Part shown: one piece after another, positions 2,176 to 39,273 of the stretch | Numbering within the stretch: position 1 is the first letter of the stretch | Layout: the number at the start of each line of letters is the position of its first letter | DNA from: Pseudomonadota bacterium | Lineage (GTDB): Bacteria > Desulfobacterota > Desulfobacteria > Desulfobacterales > RPRI01 | Assembly: GCA_043825875.1 (NCBI GenBank) | Contig: JBDRRF010000079.1 | Coordinates: 64,001-128,000, forward strand | Length of the DNA: 64,000 bases | Direction of reading: 5' to 3' | Notes under the pieces: generated by a model | Told to the model about the DNA's origin: nothing | What the model saw: the letters and a program-made list of their open reading frames with translations, nothing else | The model's database searches: none | Made by a program: the position numbers and the translations under genes

Positions 2176-3696
2176 TTAAAAGTCAAGCGGACTTTTGGCT
2201 TCTTTCAGGGTTGTACTTTTGATGGTATGTGTATAAATCATAGTGGTTCTGACATCACTATGCCCCAGTAATTCCTGAATGGTCCTTATATCATAGTTTG
2301 CCTGCAATAAATGACTGGCAAAGCTGTGGCGAAAGGTATGAGCAGTGGCACGTTTTGTAATCCTTGATTTGTCTACCGCCTTTTTTATGGTTTTTTGAAC
2401 AAGGCTTTCATGCAAATGATAACGTCGGTACTCCCCGCTTTTCTTTTCATAAGTTAATTGCATTGCCGGAAAAAACCACTGCCATATAAAATCCTTTGCT
2501 GCATTTTTATATTTTAACTCTAATGCATTTACCAGAAATACTCCGGCATATTTTCTTTCAATGTCCCGTTTATGCAAATCTTTCAATGTCTCAAGATGAT
2601 TTTTAAGTTCAGAAATGATTTTTTCGGGAAGCGGGACTGTTCTATCCTTTTGGCCTTTACCGTCATGAACTGTTAATATCCCTGCATCAAAATTCATACA
2701 ATGCACACGAAGACCCAGGCATTCAAAAAGTCGAAGTCCGCACCCATAAAGCAATTTCACAACAAGATCAAAGGGAGGTTCCAATAATTTCAGGATATCA
2801 TCAATCTCTTCACGAGATAGGACTACAGGGATATATGGTTTCCTTTTTGCTCTTACAACCCCGTCGAGTTTCCCGAATTCCCTGCGTAGAATATGCCGAT
2901 AAAAAAATAACAGCGAATTAAAAGCCTGGTTCTGAGTGGAAGAAGCTACTTTTCGCTTCACAGCCAAAGAGGTTAAGAATTCTTTAACATCGTCTGCTGA
3001 AAGCAATTCCGGGTTCTTGCTTTTTGTAAAAGTCTGGAATTTTCGAACCCATCCTTTATATGTCCTGAGAGTTTTAGGAGAATAATGCCTTACACTTATT
3101 TCATTCTCCAGGCCTGTGTATTCCTTTACCCATGAAGCACCGGTTGCTTGAACAGCGTACTTCTTATTTACCGGTTTGCTGACGGTTTTTAATGAACCGT
3201 TAAAAGTTGGTGATTCCGTAATAACTCCCGAAACCGTCATGCCGGACTCGATCTGGCATCCAGAATTGTTTATAATTTCAGAATGCTGGCTTTCGCTGGT
3301 ATGATGGGGCAAACTATTATCCTGCTTTGCGGGTCCATTAACAGCCTCACGAACAGAAAAAGCTTTGTGGCTTTTAGAAGGAATATATTCCCGATAATTT
3401 ACAGATTGGGTTACGATTTCCTTGTCTGTGAGACCTTTCATCTCAATTACTTCATAATACAGATTTACTGCAATTATTGCTTGATCTTGCTGCTCTTTAG
3501 TCTGTTTTTTTTCTTGCAGTTTACGGACAAACAGTAACAATTTATCTTTATTCGCTGGTGGGTGGCTATACTTGCCGCAAAAGTCCAAATAATAGCGCAG
3601 CCATTTTTTGTAAGCCACTTGTAAATTATTTGGGATTTTTCTTTTTATTAAAATAGCTTCAAATTGTTCCAGTATTTGGGAAGGGATAGCAAGCAT
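2176..3696 (-). CDS. intI: Integron integrase with N-terminal extension
   Basis: Tyrosine recombinase motifs LLYGCGLR, K in GKGQKDR, HTFRHSFASHLL, LLGHSDVRTTMIYTH, plus the integron-specific insertion ALELKYKNAAKDFIWQWFFPA…RRYHLHE; divergent from an attC array. Confidence 0.95.
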   Translation of the reverse strand: MLAIPSQILEQFEAILIKRKIPNNLQVAYKKWLRYYLDFCGKYSHPPANKDKLLLFVRKLQEKKQTKEQQDQAIIAVNLYYEVIEMKGLTDKEIVTQSVNYREYIPSKSHKAFSVREAVNGPAKQDNSLPHHTSESQHSEIINNSGCQIESGMTVSGVITESPTFNGSLKTVSKPVNKKYAVQATGASWVKEYTGLENEISVRHYSPKTLRTYKGWVRKFQTFTKSKNPELLSADDVKEFLTSLAVKRKVASSTQNQAFNSLLFFYRHILRREFGKLDGVVRAKRKPYIPVVLSREEIDDILKLLEPPFDLVVKLLYGCGLRLFECLGLRVHCMNFDAGILTVHDGKGQKDRTVPLPEKIISELKNHLETLKDLHKRDIERKYAGVFLVNALELKYKNAAKDFIWQWFFPAMQLTYEKKSGEYRRYHLHESLVQKTIKKAVDKSRITKRATAHTFRHSFASHLLQANYDIRTIQELLGHSDVRTTMIYTHTIKSTTLKEAKSPLDF

Positions 3697-3750
3697 ATAA
3701 TCTCCTTCTTCCAGATAGTTTGATAAATAATATGATATCTGGAAAGTTAA

Positions 3751-3779
3751 AAAATATATTATTGCAAATTTCTTGTCAA
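3751..3779 (-). promoter_or_regulatory. Candidate Pint promoter of intI
   Basis: Minus strand TTGACA-17 nt-TATTTT, ~55 nt upstream of the intI start. Confidence 0.55.
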
Positions 3780-3894
3780 TAGATTATATGTAGTTCAAAT
3801 TTAAATCAAAATAACCCTTGGTCATTTTGTAATTTAACTTAAACATTATAGATTTTTTTCTAAAACTTTGTGTTGATCATACGAAATTACAAGA

Positions 3895-3924
3895 TCACCG
3901 GATCTGGTGAATAACTTGTTAGGT
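3895..3924 (+). other. Putative attI site (core GTTAGGT at 3918-3924)
   Basis: GTTRRRY core between divergent intI and the first cassette ORF, not preceded by an attC stem. Confidence 0.7.
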
Positions 3925-3955
3925 GTCCCCCACACAAAGACGAAAGGATATTATT

Positions 3956-4663
3956 ATGGGTTTCTTTAAAAAAATTTTTGGTAAAGAAAACGCTTCACGA
4001 TCATCAAATTCTGATAAAAATGATAAAGAAAGACAAAGTGAAAAGCGAATCACATTACCGGATGTACTTGCTAAAAAAGGTGATATGAACATTAGAGATG
4101 TAATTAAATCCTGTTCATCAAATGAATTACAAAAAATTATCAATGAATTACCTATTGAATCCCTCATATTAGATTCAACCGCATGTTCAGACGTTAGGCT
4201 GAATGACAGGTTGTTTCAAATTTGTATTCAATTTTCATCAGTTCTTGCGAATTATGATAGTATTAGAAATGAAAATCCTGATTTTAAGTTGCCTGTAGAC
4301 TTACCTGCTTTTGAATTATCAAAAAATTTAATCCCAAGATTTGTAGAACAAATAAAGGCTCAAAATACTTCTGATATTTTCCCCGCAGCTGGTCAAGAAA
4401 TATTCATTTTTGCACAAGACCTGATTAAAGGAGGGTGGAATCATGAGGCATTCGATTGTCTTTCAGTATGCGAGAACATCCCAGGTTTAAATAAAAATGA
4501 AGTTGTATTTTGGTCATGGGCATCTCTCCATAACATTGCCACTAAAACTAAGGTTCGTAAAATTATCAAACGTGCTTTGGAAGCTTCGAAAAAAATACCT
4601 GCTGGCCGTCGTGAAGAAGTTGCAAAGGCTATAGAGTGGGAACGTAAACAATTATTTGGCTAA
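3956..4663 (+). CDS. Cassette 1 hypothetical protein
   Basis: AAGGA RBS then ATG 3956 (MGFFKKIFGK); stop codon overlaps attC R'' GGCTAAC. Confidence 0.75.
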   Translation: MGFFKKIFGKENASRSSNSDKNDKERQSEKRITLPDVLAKKGDMNIRDVIKSCSSNELQKIINELPIESLILDSTACSDVRLNDRLFQICIQFSSVLANYDSIRNENPDFKLPVDLPAFELSKNLIPRFVEQIKAQNTSDIFPAAGQEIFIFAQDLIKGGWNHEAFDCLSVCENIPGLNKNEVVFWSWASLHNIATKTKVRKIIKRALEASKKIPAGRREEVAKAIEWERKQLFG

Positions 4664-4712
4664 CAAAAAACAGCTGACGCAAAAAGCCGCACCGCTAATT
4701 TTGACGTAGAAG
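4658..4712 (+). other. Degenerate attC site
   Basis: GGCTAAC…CAGCTGACGCAAAAAGCCGCACCGCTAAT…GTAGAAG; same family as 5441 and 8117 but R' lacks GTT. Confidence 0.65.
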
Positions 4713-4724
4713 GAGGAAACTATT

Positions 4725-5420
4725 ATGGGTTTTTGGGGAAAAATATTTGGTAATAAAAATAATAACGATATAAAAATCGTCAAAAATGGAACTCATCACA
4801 ACTGGTATTTTTCAGAGGATAAAAAACGTGGATTGAACCAAATTGTCTTAAATCTCGATGGTCGTTCAGCAACCAAATCGCAATTTGGTAATTTGATTCT
4901 TAATCGTAATAAGTATGGTCCACTTTTTAGTGACCTTGCTGTTGGCTTTTTTGACCTTGATACAAATCCCGGCCCTTTTTTATTGGTTAAAAATTCTAGA
5001 TATGCCAAAGAACTTGCAAATGAGTCTATTACCATTGCATTTACATTTTGTCACATGCCATCGGGTCCACTATTCGCAATTTTCATGTATCCAAATTCAA
5101 AACAAGAAAGACTTCCTCCAGGAGCTTGCTTTACTGACCAAGTTTACAATATTAATGATTTTAAAGATCTAATTACAGGGTCATTTAAGAAAGATAAAAT
5201 GACTATTGTTTTTGCACAGGGTGGTGGCATGGCTGGTATAGATTGCCTTTTTGATGTGGAATATATTTTTAACAATTCACTTCATGAAAAATTTATAGAA
5301 CAATGGTCTAAACTTATTGAACACGGAAAGTCTGTACGTTCAATTTCTTTTGAAGCAAGTAGAGAAGAACTTTATGCCCGAACTCCAACCAATGAATCTC
5401 CAATTCTTAGGTTAAAATAA
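4725..5420 (+). CDS. Cassette 2 hypothetical protein
   Basis: GGAGG RBS, 231-aa ORF between attC sites. Confidence 0.75.
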   Translation: MGFWGKIFGNKNNNDIKIVKNGTHHNWYFSEDKKRGLNQIVLNLDGRSATKSQFGNLILNRNKYGPLFSDLAVGFFDLDTNPGPFLLVKNSRYAKELANESITIAFTFCHMPSGPLFAIFMYPNSKQERLPPGACFTDQVYNINDFKDLITGSFKKDKMTIVFAQGGGMAGIDCLFDVEYIFNNSLHEKFIEQWSKLIEHGKSVRSISFEASREELYARTPTNESPILRLK

Positions 5421-5440
5421 TGAGCGAGTAGCCCAAGAAC

Positions 5441-5500
5441 ACCTAACCAGGCTAATTCAGCCGACGCAAAAAGCCGCGCGGCTGATTAGCGGCGTTCGGC
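5441..5500 (+). other. attC site
   Basis: ACCTAAC…GCTAATTCAGCCGACGC AAAAA GCCGCGCGGCTGATTAGC…GTTCGGC; imperfect stem with extrahelical bases. Confidence 0.9.
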
Positions 5501-5660
5501 AGGAGGCACTATTCTATTTGGGATTTTTCAGTCAAAAGCCATGTTCGAAGAACTTGAAACATTGAAAAAGAGCTATGACCAAATTAAAGAAAGCAAAATG
5601 GAATGCCTATTATGTATTAGTAGACATTATAAGTTGAACCTGAATTGAGAAAGGAGAAAC

Positions 5661-6209
5661 ATGAGAAAAACAATGGTGGTTTACATGTTGATTTGTTGTT
5701 TGGCGGTTTTAGTTAGCTGTCGACATCAAGGTGCATATGTCCCATACACTCCAGACCCGCAAGAGACATGGAGTTACAGTTCAATAACAAGCCCAGTAGT
5801 CACTAATGATTACACCATATCTATTGTGCCTGAATATTGGGGGAGTTACCGCAGAAATTTCGGATGGCAATGTTTTGCGCTTTCCGTAGAAAATAAGACG
5901 GATAAAAATATCGAAATTGTGTGGGACAAAACCCTTTTTGTAACAAAAGGTTCAACGAGTGGCAGATTTATGTTTGATGGCGTGATTTACAAAGATCGCA
6001 ACAATCCAAAACCCAACGATATTGTATTTGGAAATACCACACTTACCAAGTTAATTTTACCCAATAACCTCTTGGAATATATTAGGGGGTCTTCGATGGG
6101 GTGGCTTCATAATATAATACCACAAGGTGAAACTGGTATATATATTACCATTAAGATAGATGAAAAAGAAATTGGCGAAAAAGTGATAGTTAATATAAGT
6201 AAGGAATAA
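5661..6209 (+). CDS. Cassette 3 putative lipoprotein
   Basis: AAGGAG RBS; hydrophobic N-terminus ending LVSC (lipobox). Confidence 0.75.
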   Translation: MRKTMVVYMLICCLAVLVSCRHQGAYVPYTPDPQETWSYSSITSPVVTNDYTISIVPEYWGSYRRNFGWQCFALSVENKTDKNIEIVWDKTLFVTKGSTSGRFMFDGVIYKDRNNPKPNDIVFGNTTLTKLILPNNLLEYIRGSSMGWLHNIIPQGETGIYITIKIDEKEIGEKVIVNISKE

Positions 6210-6278
6210 AGTAAGTTGCTTACAACCAGACAGTTTGGGAAGAAGCGGGACGTTCCAATGAACAACAAGGCAGAAAGC

Positions 6279-6405
6279 GCCGAACAATTTAATACACACT
6301 GACCCCAAGGAGCTATTTTTTCGGCTGTCATTTCGGCTGTAGTTACCATAGTTTCCTGTGTTGTAGTTTTGTGTTTCCTTGGGGCAGGTGATCATGGCGT
6401 TAGCT
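6279..6405 (+). other. attC site (127 bp)
   Basis: GCCGAAC…CACACTGACCCCAAGGA…TCCTTGGGGCAGGTG…GTTAGCT; R'' is complementary to the GTTCGGC that opens this cassette. Confidence 0.88.
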
Positions 6406-6442
6406 TACGAATGAAAATGAAAACCAGACATCAAAAAAAATA

Positions 6443-6737
6443 GAGTTTTTTGAAGGCAGGCAAAAAAACCCTAAAAAGGAGATTCTTATGGCGGATAAAA
6501 TGAAAGTTGAAACAGGTAGCAATGCTTTTATTATGGAGGCCAGTGATGATACTATGCTTCTTGGCCTGAAGCTTCCGAAATGTCCTCACCCGAAAGGTAC
6601 AATGATTAAAGTTTCTCTTGCTCCCGAAGGAGCAAAAGATGATGGCTCTCTAAAAGGAATATGTTGCGATGGCCTTTGTTGGAGCAACTGATTAAATAAA
6701 CATAAACTAAAAAATTTTGCCTGCCTTCAAAAAACTC
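6443..6737. repeat. Perfect 23-bp inverted repeat (6443-6465 / 6715-6737) enclosing the peptide gene
   Basis: GAGTTTTTTGAAGGCAGGCAAAA and TTTTGCCTGCCTTCAAAAAACTC. Confidence 0.95.
6488..6691 (+). CDS. Putative RiPP precursor peptide (67 aa, C-terminal GICCDGLCWSN)
   Basis: Strong AAGGAG RBS; short ORF directly upstream of a rSAM/SPASM gene in the same cassette; Cys/Trp/Asn-rich C-terminus. Confidence 0.75.
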   Translation: MADKMKVETGSNAFIMEASDDTMLLGLKLPKCPHPKGTMIKVSLAPEGAKDDGSLKGICCDGLCWSN

Positions 6738-6756
6738 GATATATGGAGTAGAGACT

Positions 6757-8076
6757 ATGAAGTCTTCAATGTTTAATCTCGTTTTTGATCATCAAGGAAG
6801 CATCTATTGCTTCAACACTGCTAGCGGTGCTCTTCTTCCAATCTCTGGAGAAACAAAAAAAATAATTAAGGGGAAAAAAATACATACCGATCAATTGAGC
6901 GTTAATTATCCTGATTTAGTGAAAGGTCGATTTTTTGTTCCACCAGAAACGGATGAAATAAAAAAACTCCGATTTAAATATGAATCCCAACGTTTTAATA
7001 CTTCTATCTTAGCACTAACAGTTTGCCCTACTCTTTCATGCAATTTTGCTTGCCCTTACTGCTTCGAATCGCCCAGTATTCAGCAAGGATACATGAGTGA
7101 AGAAACTATCAATTGTTTAATACAGTTCTTGGAGGCACACTTGCCGTCAAAAAAATCTTTACTGTTAACTTGGTTTGGAGGTGAGCCTTTATTAGGGCTG
7201 TCTATAATTGATAGGCTATCAAAAACAATTATTGAACTTTGTGAAAAAAATGAAGTTGAATACAGTTCCTCTATAATCACGAATGGTTATCTTCTTAACC
7301 GTGAAAATGCCGAAACTCTTCTTGCCAATCAAATAACGAGAGTTCAAGTAACCATTGATGGAACAGAAAATGTTCATAATGCAACTCGCTCCCTTAAAAA
7401 CGGAAAAGGAACATTTAACCGCATTATTACTAACGTTCTTTGTTGTAAAGATATTTTAGATGTTGCTATCAGAATAAATTTACACAATAAAAATGCCTAT
7501 GATATGGATAAGCTCATTGCATATTTAGCGGAAAAGGGCTTAGCGAATCAGGCATATGTGGATCGAGTAACAGATGAGGCACATTCTAACAGATGCTTGA
7601 GTTGTGATGACTTTACTTCATTATCGATAGATGACTTTTCAAAATATGAAACAAGAGCGTTAAATGTATTTGCAAACCAAAGAATACTTGACAGGAAGTT
7701 AAAGCCTAAACCAACTTTTTGTGCGGCCACAACTCTATCAATGTTTGTATTAGATCCAGCCGGCAATATTTTTAAATGTTGGCACAGTGTAGGCAATATT
7801 CATGAGTCCATAGGCAATATACACCAAGAGTCAATTGAATTGAATGAGAACCATATAGACTGGCTCTCCTATCTGCCTTATGACGATGATAAATGTTGTA
7901 GTTGTATTTGTCTACCTATTTGTCAGGGCGGTTGCATTTATCAAAAAATATTAGGTGTAAAAGTATTTGGAGAATGTGATTCTATTCGAAGCAACCTGGT
8001 TGATACATTACGGATTGTAATTGATAATGATTTGAATTCTACAAAGCTATCTCATGATAATGTGGTGACTTGTTAA
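6757..8076 (+). CDS. Radical SAM/SPASM domain protein, probable peptide maturase
   Basis: CNFACPYC (CxxxCxxC), WFGGEPLL, SPASM cysteines FC…NIFKCW…CCSCICLPICQGGC…C; ~80-aa N-terminal extension consistent with an RRE-like domain. Confidence 0.9.
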   Translation: MKSSMFNLVFDHQGSIYCFNTASGALLPISGETKKIIKGKKIHTDQLSVNYPDLVKGRFFVPPETDEIKKLRFKYESQRFNTSILALTVCPTLSCNFACPYCFESPSIQQGYMSEETINCLIQFLEAHLPSKKSLLLTWFGGEPLLGLSIIDRLSKTIIELCEKNEVEYSSSIITNGYLLNRENAETLLANQITRVQVTIDGTENVHNATRSLKNGKGTFNRIITNVLCCKDILDVAIRINLHNKNAYDMDKLIAYLAEKGLANQAYVDRVTDEAHSNRCLSCDDFTSLSIDDFSKYETRALNVFANQRILDRKLKPKPTFCAATTLSMFVLDPAGNIFKCWHSVGNIHESIGNIHQESIELNENHIDWLSYLPYDDDKCCSCICLPICQGGCIYQKILGVKVFGECDSIRSNLVDTLRIVIDNDLNSTKLSHDNVVTC

Positions 8077-8116
8077 TCCGCTGTTTTGTATTGTACCAAT
8101 CTGAGATAATTGAAAA

Positions 8117-8174
8117 AGCTAACCAATAAATCCAGCGGACGCAAAAAGCCGCGCCGCTGATTTAATCGTTATAG
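8117..8174 (+). other. attC site
   Basis: AGCTAAC…TAAATCCAGCGGACGC AAAAA GCCGCGCCGCTGATTTA…GTTATAG; R'' is complementary to GTTAGCT at 6399. Confidence 0.92.
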
Positions 8175-8190
8175 CCAAGAGGAGGAAAGA

Positions 8191-8376
8191 ATGAAGAGAA
8201 TCGGAATACTCGTCTTATTACTTTTGATCATTCTGAGTGGTTGCTCAACGCGGTCAATCTCTAATTCAGGATACAGCCCTGAAAGCTACTACCGCCCCCA
8301 AGCCGATAATCCGTTGTACAAGGGTGAGTTGAGTGAATTCGACGGGGCAGTTTGGGGACGCCCTTTACATTTATAG
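8191..8376 (+). pseudogene. Cassette 5 lipoprotein gene, truncated
   Basis: GGAGG RBS, lipobox LSGC; reading frame runs into the RAYT upstream sequence at ~8345; no closing attC. Confidence 0.6.
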
Positions 8377-8411
8377 TTGACAACCTAAATATTTTATATT
8401 AAAAAGATAAC

Positions 8412-9419
8412 ATGCCAAGAAAAGCAAGAGTAGATGCGCCGGGAGCCCTTCATCATATCATTGTGCGGGGAATCGAGCGGGCCAAAATATTCAGGGCCGA
8501 TTCCGATCGTGATGATTTTTTGAACCGGTTTGGAAAACTTATAACCGAAACAAAAAGCCTTTGTTTTGCATGGGCTTTATTATCAAATCATTTTCATTTG
8601 CTGGTAAAAACCGGTAGTGTTCCGGTGTCAACTTTGATGAGGCGGCTGCTTACCGGATATGCGGTTTCATTTAACCGGCGGCATAATCGATCAGGGCATC
8701 TATTTCAGAACCGCTATAAATCCATTTTATGCCAGGAGGATGCTTATCTGCTTGAGCTGGTTCGTTACATTCATCTAAATCCCATCAGGGCAAAGCTTGT
8801 TGAAAATATGGAGGCTTTGGATCATTATATTTATTCCGGGCATAGTAATATCATGGGTAAGATTAAAAGACCATGGCAGGATATAACTGATGTTTTAGAA
8901 TTGTTCGGGAACAAAACAGGAACAGCCCGCAGGCGTTATAAGGCATTTGTTGAAAAAGGTATTTCGGAAGGCACGCGTCCAGATTTGATAGGGGGAGGTT
9001 TGATAAGAAGCAGCGGAGGCTGGGAAGCAGTAAAAGCCATGCGCAAGGCGAAGCTATTCGAGAAATCCGATGAACGCATACTTGGAAACGGAGATTTTGT
9101 TGAGACAGTACTTGCTGAATCAAATGAGAATATGAAACGAAAATATCATTTAAGGTCTAAGGGATTTGATCTTGAAAATGTTGCAGTCAGAGTATCGGAA
9201 CTTACAGGTATTGATAAATCGCAGATATTTCTTTCAGGAAAGGAGCAAAGCCGAGTTATTGCGCGCAGCATATTTTGTTATTTTGCTGTTCGGGAACTTG
9301 GGATAAGCATGTCAGAGCTTTCGAGGAAGATGGATCTTTCTTTATCAGGCGTGAGTTTATCGGTGAAACGTGGTGAGAAAATAGTTGATAAGACAGGTTA
9401 TTGTCTCATTGAAAAATAA
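8412..9419 (+). mobile_element. REP-associated tyrosine (Y1/HUH) transposase with C-terminal HTH
   Basis: MPRKAR…HHIIVRGIER, NHFHLL (HUH), GHLFQNRYKS, RYIHLNP; C-terminal DnaA-like HTH. Confidence 0.9.
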
Positions 9420-9484
9420 AAACTTTGGCTCTAAAGAGCGTTATTTTCACCCAAAAGACGCAAAAAATAAGATCAAGGGTTAAA

Positions 9485-10630
9485 ATGCCAGGATTTTTTT
9501 CCGATTATGATTTTGTTGAAAATGCAATCGAACAGGAATACAGGAAGGCCGAAAAGAAAAAAGGGTTTATAAATCTTACCGTAAGCAACCCGACTCACGA
9601 AGGGCTGATCTTTCCTTTCGAAGTTTTAAGAAATGCCGCAATATCATATCTTTCAAAACGAAGATATGATCCTGATCCGAAAGGTCTGTATTTAGCACGC
9701 CAAGCTGTTTCAGATTATTACAAAAACCGCATACCTTATATTAAAATTCCAACTGATAATATTACTATTACAGCAAGCACAAGTGAATCATACGGTATTT
9801 TATTCTCTCTTCTTGCCGACCCCGGAGACAATATACTTGCACCGAAAATAACTTATCCTCTTTTTGAGCATCTGGCGGCCATTCATCATATCAAACTGCG
9901 TCCTTATGAGCTTGATGAAAATAACAACTGGCAAATCAATGAAAACAGCATACTTTCAGAATATGACTGCCGAACACGTGCAATCATAATTGTTTCACCG
10001 CATAATCCTACGGGAGCAGTTATAAAAGAATCCGTTTCGGTACTTAATCAACTTGGCCTTCCGGTAATATGTGACGAGGTTTTCGCCGAATTCCCATGTA
10101 TGACTGTAAATATTCCACCATTCGGATCGTTGCATCCCGATCTTACGGTTTTTCATCTTAACGGAATTTCAAAGATGTTCGGACTTCCCGATTTAAAGCT
10201 CGGATGGATTGCATTAAGCGGACCTGCTTCAAAAGATTTTGAGAAAAGGCTTGATCTTTTAAACGATACTTATCTTGGAGCAAATTACATGATACAGTCA
10301 ATGCTCCCATCTATTTTTTCAGATGGCTTGGCTTTTGTTAAACAAATGCAAAAACATATCCGCATTGGCATTGATCTTGCCGTTGAATTGCTTTCTATAA
10401 ACCCCAATATAAGTGTAACCCGGCCGGATGGGGGATATTATTTGTTTCCTGAAATAAAAAACTGGAAAGATGAAGAAAAGCTTGTATTATACCTTTTAAA
10501 AAGCAAAAATGTTTTGGTTCATCCCGGTTATTTCTATGACTGTGATAAAAAAGTGCATATTATGATTTCCTGTTTAACGGAAATAAATAAGCTGGCCGAA
10601 GGAATTAAGCGTATTATTGCCGCAATTTGA
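9485..10630 (+). CDS. PLP-dependent aminotransferase, class I/II
   Basis: SPHNPTG, ICDEVF, SKMFGLPDLKLGW (PLP lysine). Confidence 0.88.
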   Translation: MPGFFSDYDFVENAIEQEYRKAEKKKGFINLTVSNPTHEGLIFPFEVLRNAAISYLSKRRYDPDPKGLYLARQAVSDYYKNRIPYIKIPTDNITITASTSESYGILFSLLADPGDNILAPKITYPLFEHLAAIHHIKLRPYELDENNNWQINENSILSEYDCRTRAIIIVSPHNPTGAVIKESVSVLNQLGLPVICDEVFAEFPCMTVNIPPFGSLHPDLTVFHLNGISKMFGLPDLKLGWIALSGPASKDFEKRLDLLNDTYLGANYMIQSMLPSIFSDGLAFVKQMQKHIRIGIDLAVELLSINPNISVTRPDGGYYLFPEIKNWKDEEKLVLYLLKSKNVLVHPGYFYDCDKKVHIMISCLTEINKLAEGIKRIIAAI

Positions 10631-39150: not shown

Positions 39151-39273
39151 AAGTAACGCTCAAAATCACCAGTGGCAAGGTTGAAACTGAATTTCGTGGT
39201 GCCAAACTCCGATAAAGGTGATGTACATGAAGGAAACCGGCTTATTGCCATCTGTTGCATTGTGTTGTTATCT
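39151..39273 (-). other. attC site (123 bp)
   Basis: Minus strand AGATAAC…CAACAGATGGCAA…TTGCCACTGGTG…GTTACTT. Confidence 0.78.

Follow-up and report, generated by a model that had tools for sequence, protein, structure and literature searches.

Locus and cassette borders

We analyzed a 64,000-nt stretch of DNA (the window) from contig JBDRRF010000079.1 of a Desulfobacterales bacterium (assembly GCA_043825875.1). Our subject is cassette 4 of the integron in this window, which carries two genes: one for a probable precursor of a peptide synthesized by ribosomes and modified post-translationally (RiPP), and one for its predicted maturase, a radical S-adenosylmethionine (SAM) enzyme with an N-terminal RiPP recognition element (RRE) and a SPASM domain. 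An inverted repeat encloses the peptide gene. Coordinates are collected in Table 1.

An earlier sequence-only reading of this DNA proposed a single cassette with complementary core sites, an intact attC recombination site at its end and no attC inside. The sequence, together with an unfiltered attC covariance model run over the 64 kb, confirms all three. The core sites GTTAGCT (6399-6405) and AGCTAAC (8117-8123) are exact complements, the next core is GTTATAG (8168-8174), and no attC lies between 6405 and 8117, the space between the peptide and maturase genes included. The model was trained on 11 attC sites from other contigs of the host genome; the window's own sites were outside the training set, two members of which closely resemble them. 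It gave six matches at E ≤ 1: 5441-5500, 8117-8174, 39151-39273, 6279-6405, 4658-4711 and one short weak match. The site at 8117-8174 forms its hairpin on the bottom strand, with a z score equalled by none of 200 shuffles, and both extrahelical bases are present as judged by eye.

At the left border, the R' core GTTAGCT of the attC at 6279-6405 opens cassette 4. The L box of this site is mismatched and its fold (6280-6405) is no better than that of shuffled sequences (z -0.11). With its left attC degenerate, cassette 4 by itself may be excised inefficiently; alternatively, cassettes 3 and 4 could be excised together through the canonical attC at 5441-5500.

The maturase ATG lies 65 nt past the peptide gene, with both genes inside the one cassette. 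One DNA assembly contig, possibly the source data itself, covers 5467-8163 identically with no joint inside the cassette; being assembled, it says nothing on rare excision or inversion. No RNA sequencing runs carrying the region are listed. The sequence-only reading overstated the case in saying that cassettes usually hold a single gene or a toxin-antitoxin pair: cassettes with two genes are common, and RefSeq integrons average about 1.4 genes per cassette (121,711 genes in 85,204 cassettes) according to the accessible text of bioRxiv 10.1101/2024.07.02.601686.

Table 1. Features of cassette 4 and its integron
Feature	Position	Strand	Details
Integron integrase IntI, 506 aa	2176-3696	-	TIGR02249 392.2 bits, cut-off 265
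Probable attI core GTTAGGT, array start	3918-3924	+	inferred from position between intI and first cassette ORF
attC of cassette 2, canonical	5441-5500	+	43.2 bits; bottom-strand hairpin z -2.49
attC of cassette 3 and left border of cassette 4; long, degenerate	6279-6405	+	19.9 bits, E 0.018
Cassette 4, peptide and maturase, 1,769 bp	6400-8168	+	complementary core sites; no internal attC
Repeat 5' arm (perfect part 6443-6465), ends 22 nt before peptide ATG	6440-6465	+	inverted-repeat search
Shine-Dalgarno of peptide gene, AGGAG, 6 nt before ATG	6477-6481	+	sequence
Probable precursor, 67 aa; C-terminus GICCDGLCWSN	6488-6691	+	Cys32, Cys59, Cys60, Cys64; one homologue
Repeat 3' arm (perfect part 6715-6737), starts 23 nt past peptide stop, ends 19 nt before maturase ATG	6715-6740	+
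Shine-Dalgarno of maturase gene, GGAG, predicted mostly paired	6745-6748	+	unpaired probability 0.01-0.11
RRE-radical SAM-SPASM maturase, 439 aa	6757-8076	+	C95/99/102; SPASM C322, C341, C380, C383, C389, C393, C407
attC of cassette 4, canonical; R'' AGCTAAC, R' GTTATAG	8117-8174	+	31.1 bits, E 3e-5; z -3.67

Precursor peptide

The 67-aa open reading frame (ORF) has the strong ribosome-binding site first attributed to it, and its product belongs, as then suspected, to no recognized family: nothing in Pfam or NCBIfam matches it, and the precursor model TIGR04333 gives no hit at E ≤ 10. The peptide lacks a confident fold (ESM Atlas predicted local distance difference test score, pLDDT, 0.43; a second model has pLDDT 52 and several strands). 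Its sole homologue, P0002, is 80% identical and is encoded on a 658-bp ENA contig. P0002 retains all four cysteines, His34, the motif CPHPKG, Trp65 and the terminal GICCDGLCWSN, and differs by two frame-preserving indels. Ten of the 13 substitutions are BLOSUM-positive (P ~0.001 by neutral simulation), and this conservative pattern indicates that the ORF is a real protein gene.

Elsewhere the peptide is rare. It has no homologues in viral contigs, plasmids or 203 collected loci, and searches of 400 genomes of the order and 400 of the phylum (overlapping sets) returned only its own genome (1/401 each). Five candidates for an N-terminal enzyme fragment sharing the P0002 contig were considered, none at E ≤ 1e-5. 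Two further candidate homologues of the peptide, the 736-aa repeat protein P0141 and locus L016, appear to be chance matches. Selenocysteine read-through of the peptide's TGA is rejected, as P0002 stops at the same Asn. The Rfam model whalefall-1 has a sub-threshold match within the ORF (6582-6638, minus strand; 28.1 bits, gathering threshold 37) with a UUCG hairpin antisense to the gene. We rejected a noncoding-RNA reading of this match on two grounds: inside the ORF, folding is no stronger than in shuffled sequence, and selection acts at the protein level.

Maturase

The second gene encodes the 439-aa enzyme with CxxxCxxC motif, SPASM domain and N-terminal extension that the sequence-only reading described. 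It scores 47.6 bits on the SPASM profile TIGR04085 (cut-off 27), and has both the CxxxCxxC motif and a seven-cysteine SPASM region. The radical SAM and SPASM cysteines are invariant in a 40-sequence alignment (the query and 39 of its best matches). In an AlphaFold2 model (pLDDT 86), the N-terminal domain is three-stranded and helical. The model's structural match to CteB extends over residues 4-425 (Z 29.5, root-mean-square deviation 3.8, 405 residues aligned) and that to the anaerobic sulfatase maturase anSME starts only at residue 84, so we assign the extension as an RRE. CteB (5WGG) is also the top sequence match among solved structures, and the cassette enzyme has 20-22% identity to the CteB and PapB systems. 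An Atlas feature match is a lead only: in the cluster that it points to, 11% of members carry PqqD. The possibility that the enzyme is itself an anaerobic sulfatase maturase, raised along with the first description, is excluded by its score on TIGR03942 (99.9 bits, cut-off 349) and by the RRE, a domain absent from anSME.

The top NCBIfam scores are for TIGR04463 (285.7 bits, cut-off 525), Clo7bot TIGR04334 (271.9, cut-off 600) and CefB (214, cut-off 600), followed by FlmE/OhkG (198.1), geopeptide TIGR04280 (186.3, cut-off 400) and PapB (144.7, cut-off 340). By these sequence scores, the enzyme is closest to the Cys-peptide maturase families TIGR04463, Clo7bot and CefB. No published work on FlmE was found in the literature searched. 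The nearest proteins among 5.8 billion share 31-39% identity (best 120 of 152). In the class, 5/401 genomes hold matches at E ≤ 1e-55; the top one from a foreign genome has 35% identity. A quick tree of 75 rows sets the maturase apart from the geopeptide clade, on a long branch within a broad radiation of Clo7bot/TIGR04463-like enzymes.

The TIGR04463 member CrpC has the same SPASM spacing, C-x18-C ... CxxC-x5-C-x3-C (AuxI C333/352/403, AuxII C390/393/399/422), and it is reported to make thioethers, judged to be ranthionine, in motifs of four residues (CAGM and CPLV among them), as far as the accessible text of PMC13692751 goes. By analogy, CrpC is the nearest experimental anchor for the cassette enzyme.

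A small Cys-rich ORF stands beside the enzyme in 17/54 other non-redundant relative loci under a strict filter; this filter selects for Cys and has no control, and a few of the ORFs look spurious. The 54 derive from 80 loci, of which four had no usable ORF and the remainder were redundant. These ORFs vary from lineage to lineage, so a precursor unrelated to the others is expected here. No attC was matched in 86 + 28 relative loci, where the host-trained model may miss foreign sites. One genome of the same order has four tandem paralogous maturases of this clade (G022:C194:1474-6834; L002, L124-L126), with a Cys-rich 45-aa ORF at L125. On several viral contigs (among L127-L148), Cys-rich peptides are encoded next to relatives of the enzyme, and one (L137) has four tandem precursors.

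We predict that the maturase modifies the cassette peptide, which is probable. The small protein might instead be a folded metal-binding or regulatory protein, with the enzyme acting on some other host or phage protein. Its residues 28-48 are invariant, beta-rich and conserved beyond what is usual for leaders, the low-confidence model has several strands, and CrpC acts not on a short peptide but on a protein of 298 aa (PMC13692751, accessible text). We consider this highly improbable given the RRE in the maturase, the packing of both genes 65 nt apart in one cassette, the core-like grouping of three of the four cysteines at the C-terminus and the absence of a confident fold in the ESM Atlas.

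Inverted repeat

A 26-nt inverted repeat, 23 nt of it perfect, brackets exactly the peptide gene. The sequence-only reading did not mention it. Each arm stops immediately upstream of a Shine-Dalgarno sequence, the first that of the peptide gene and the second that of the maturase. It is the longest perfect inverted repeat within 3600-9500. The predicted duplex has a free energy of -38.7 kcal/mol (z -3.43), with 21/23 pairs at probability ≥0.98 in a 770-nt context, and none of 600 random genome windows scores as high. The whole genome has seven places with a perfect repeat of at least 20 nt at 100-600 nt spacing. A DNA search of 300 genomes of the order with the repeat region found only short weak matches (20-59 nt), and the arm pattern is absent from the viral contigs. 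Among other enzyme loci, four have repeats scoring 16-18, which look AT-rich or self-folding.

Long-range stems around rRNA are RNase III substrates. The host has an RNase III gene (TIGR02191, above cut-off), and the predicted 23-bp helix has the roughly two turns of an RNase III stem. Long-range mRNA stems are likewise cut by RNase III in Bacillus subtilis, according to the available portion of PMC11780869. Probably the repeat works as a stem in the mRNA, giving the precursor and enzyme messages separate fates.

The main rival to this stem is a DNA inversion switch. In that view, or if the peptide gene had been captured by a miniature transposon, the arms would act as DNA, as the ends of an invertible on/off segment or as those of the transposon. 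Being perfect complements, they hold no strand information, and with 23-26 bp on either side of some 250 bp the repeat is of the size known for invertible switches. Action as DNA is nevertheless improbable. No second copy of the arm occurs in the 4.77-Mb genome at up to four mismatches, which counts against a miniature transposon. A clear target-site duplication was not seen by eye and no invertase lies within the cassette. Both ribosome-binding sites also lie just beyond the ends of the arms, as would suit a role in RNA.

Proposed mechanism and product

Established for cassette 4 are its borders, the integrity of both genes, the domain architecture of the enzyme, the purifying selection acting on the peptide and the 23-bp repeat. 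Our overall reading, to which we give a probability of roughly 0.6, is that the cassette is a self-contained RiPP maturation unit movable by IntI, with thioether chemistry and a precursor excess set by the stem. Both genes would share one transcript, probably started at the integron promoter when the cassette lies close to attI. The arms would then pair in the mRNA to form a 23-bp helix that is cut by RNase III or shields the message ends. The peptide would thereby have a stable message and the enzyme one of its own that is translated weakly, hence more precursor than enzyme. A stem without terminator function would leave transcription of downstream cassettes uninterrupted. The RRE would bind the peptide at its N-terminal leader, around MKVETG, and ranthionine-type Cys thioethers would come from the radical SAM domain. 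By analogy with the four-residue motifs of CrpC, the likely rings would join Cys64 to Asn67 and Cys59/60 to Gly62/Leu63, possibly with another at Cys32. In the last and weakest step, the cross-linked C-terminal core may be freed and exported by proteases and transporters of the host. A gene with a C39 peptidase domain is present elsewhere in the host genome.

Several observations weigh against this reading. For the pairing of peptide and enzyme, conserved co-occurrence, by which RiPP pairs are usually proved, was not seen beyond cassette 4; P0002, the peptide's one homologue, comes without accessible neighbouring genes. The peptide is Cys-poor for this enzyme clade (4 of 67 residues), lacks a CX3D motif and has no double-glycine cleavage site before the core. 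The maturase falls below every equivalog cut-off, including those of TIGR04463, Clo7bot and geopeptide, and its terminal branch (1.17 in the quick tree) belongs to no strongly supported clade; because of this lone long branch and the sub-threshold scores, the chemistry we assign to it is an extrapolation. The repeat is not a family trait: among other enzyme loci, 0/82 have one scoring ≥20 (87 loci were given and 83 scored, many of them redundant). It is wholly complementary with no G-U pair, hence blind to RNA versus DNA action, and has no homologue in which covariation could appear. Finally, triceptides follow a pattern of three-residue aromatic cross-links (aromatic-X-X), which the C-terminal W-S-N of the peptide fits.

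This last point bears on an alternative chemistry, in which the peptide is the substrate and the link is a carbon-carbon cyclophane on Trp65-Ser-Asn67 or His34, leaving the cysteines free or in disulfides. Both W-S-N and His34 are retained in the two peptide homologues, and the maturase fits no family cut-off. The cyclophane-forming models score low (YhhB 60.6, GrrM/OscB 56.7 and AmcB 51.7 bits, with cut-offs of 310-445; DynA 96.9), that is 52-97 bits against 214-286 for the Cys-peptide maturases. Candidate precursors near the relatives are Cys-rich, as picked by a Cys-selecting filter. A cyclophane is thus quite unlikely, and a ranthipeptide-like thioether peptide, by analogy with the characterized relatives, is the most likely product.

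What the product does is harder to call. Export as an antagonistic or signalling peptide is our tentative preference; retention in the cell as a metal or sulfur binder is doubtful, and a role as a defence factor unlikely. The sequence-only reading had taken the missing transporter and protease to mean that the product may act inside the cell or use host export. They are indeed missing from the cassette, but this is not distinctive, because the host's own geopeptide pair also has no RiPP exporter or protease in the six neighbouring ORFs scanned. The same reading had suggested a defence or addiction function. Our only pointer to one is that integrons are generally enriched in such systems. A module acting inside the cell against phages or in addiction would suit the absence of an exporter and the enrichment of cassettes for small one- or two-gene defence systems (bioRxiv 10.1101/2024.07.02.601686, accessible text). 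It is not to be expected from the PADLOC search, whose sole match is the overlap (44 bits) that viperin models have with radical SAM proteins in general, nor from the geopeptide pair, which is equally minimal. On balance we doubt it strongly.

Related systems

The closest described system is CrpC/CrpA of Methanococcus voltae (TIGR04463 family). In the accessible text of PMC13692751, it shares with cassette 4 an RRE-radical SAM-SPASM enzyme, the 3+3+4 Cys spacing and a Cys-bearing C-terminal region encoded in the adjacent gene. In contrast, the cassette enzyme reaches only 285.7 of the 525 bits required, its predicted substrate is 67 aa with four Cys rather than a 298-aa Cys-repeat protein, and the pair is integron-borne. 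Clo7bot (TIGR04334/TIGR04333) and CefB belong to the same broad enzyme clade and have a small precursor upstream of the enzyme. The cassette enzyme is under both of their cut-offs (600), and it has a single precursor with no Cys ladder and no TIGR04333 match. CteB/CteA (SCIFF, thermocellin) and PapB are similar in that the cassette enzyme matches CteB over its full length including the RRE, and its spacing suggests an open AuxI site; the cassette peptide lacks their six-Cys or CX3D pattern.

The host chromosome carries a geopeptide pair (TIGR04280; contig C66). Like cassette 4, it is a minimal pair with a G-x-C-C-x-G-like stretch near the precursor C-terminus and strong RNA structure between the genes. 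The two precursors do not align, and the geopeptide structure is a local hairpin (-24.4 kcal/mol), whereas that of the cassette is a split long-range stem. The geopeptide locus (G000:C66:23320-24819, L120) consists of a 41-aa precursor, the intergenic hairpin and the maturase, which scores 561 on TIGR04280, and lies behind a TonB-dependent receptor. Similar precursors also occur in genus relatives (L005-L008).

The long-range RNase III stems described in the available part of PMC11780869 also have a two-turn helix spanning hundreds of nucleotides; in cassette 4, the stem encloses exactly one RiPP precursor and its cleavage is a prediction. Sucellos and Toutatis likewise have two genes per attC-bounded cassette (bioRxiv 10.1101/2024.07.02.601686, accessible text). 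They are defence systems, whereas the pair here is biosynthetic.

Integron context

The integron is complete, adjoins a tRNA-Phe gene (1083-1158) and has intI divergent from an array with four attC sites. Between tRNA-Phe and intI (1083-1967) are a 125-aa ORF and a weak HicA-like ORF (PF07927, E 0.0012), possibly a toxin-antitoxin pair on an island. Cassettes 1 and 2 (3918-5500) have a 46-nt 5' repeat in common (78%) and encode alike N-termini, MGFFKKIFG and MGFWGKIFG. The attC of cassette 1 (4658-4711) is decayed: its core is GTA and it folds poorly. ACCTAAC, the R'' of cassette 2, is complementary to the attI core GTTAGGT; these two cassettes may therefore move fused. The first ORF of cassette 5 (8191-8376) is lipoprotein-like. 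It seems to be truncated near 8345 by a gene resembling REP-associated tyrosine transposases (8412-9419; NF047646 65 bits, below the cut-off of 80), with which the array ends.

Distant from the integron, an attC-like site on the minus strand (39151-39273, 20.9 bits) lies in an AT-rich stretch and possibly belongs to an integrase-less cassette cluster. The leader between intI and attI (3741-3925) has partial look-alikes on seven other contigs. The host genome has three further IntI-like genes and 16 attC matches.

Implications

Both the cassette mechanism and the chemistry class are already known. What is new is the set of features that come together here: an orphan lineage of maturase, a precursor family of two members that has not been described, a minimal pair packed in a cassette and a stem bracketing the precursor. 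We found no publication in which an integron cassette carries a pathway of the RiPP or radical SAM kind, and none on repeat-bracketed precursors, in a literature search that was thin in subscription journals. In its accessible text, PMC13500778 treats cassettes and biosynthetic gene clusters only in general terms.

A broader claim would be that integrons shuttle complete, streamlined RiPP pathways. Cassette 4 would be a two-gene case with an undescribed precursor family, a precursor-to-enzyme ratio set by a terminator-free long-range RNase III stem, and a product that may be a new thioether antagonistic or defence peptide switchable by IntI reshuffling. Taken whole, this claim is questionable. 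If it is right, integron arrays spread natural-product chemistry besides resistance and defence genes, and cassette collections are a source of compact RiPP pairs in which the cassette borders give the substrate. The 1.8-kb unit is directly testable by co-expression. A large maturase clade of which very little has been characterized would gain a new substrate, and the unit would offer a simple way to ask whether the ratio of precursor to enzyme is set by a long-range mRNA stem.

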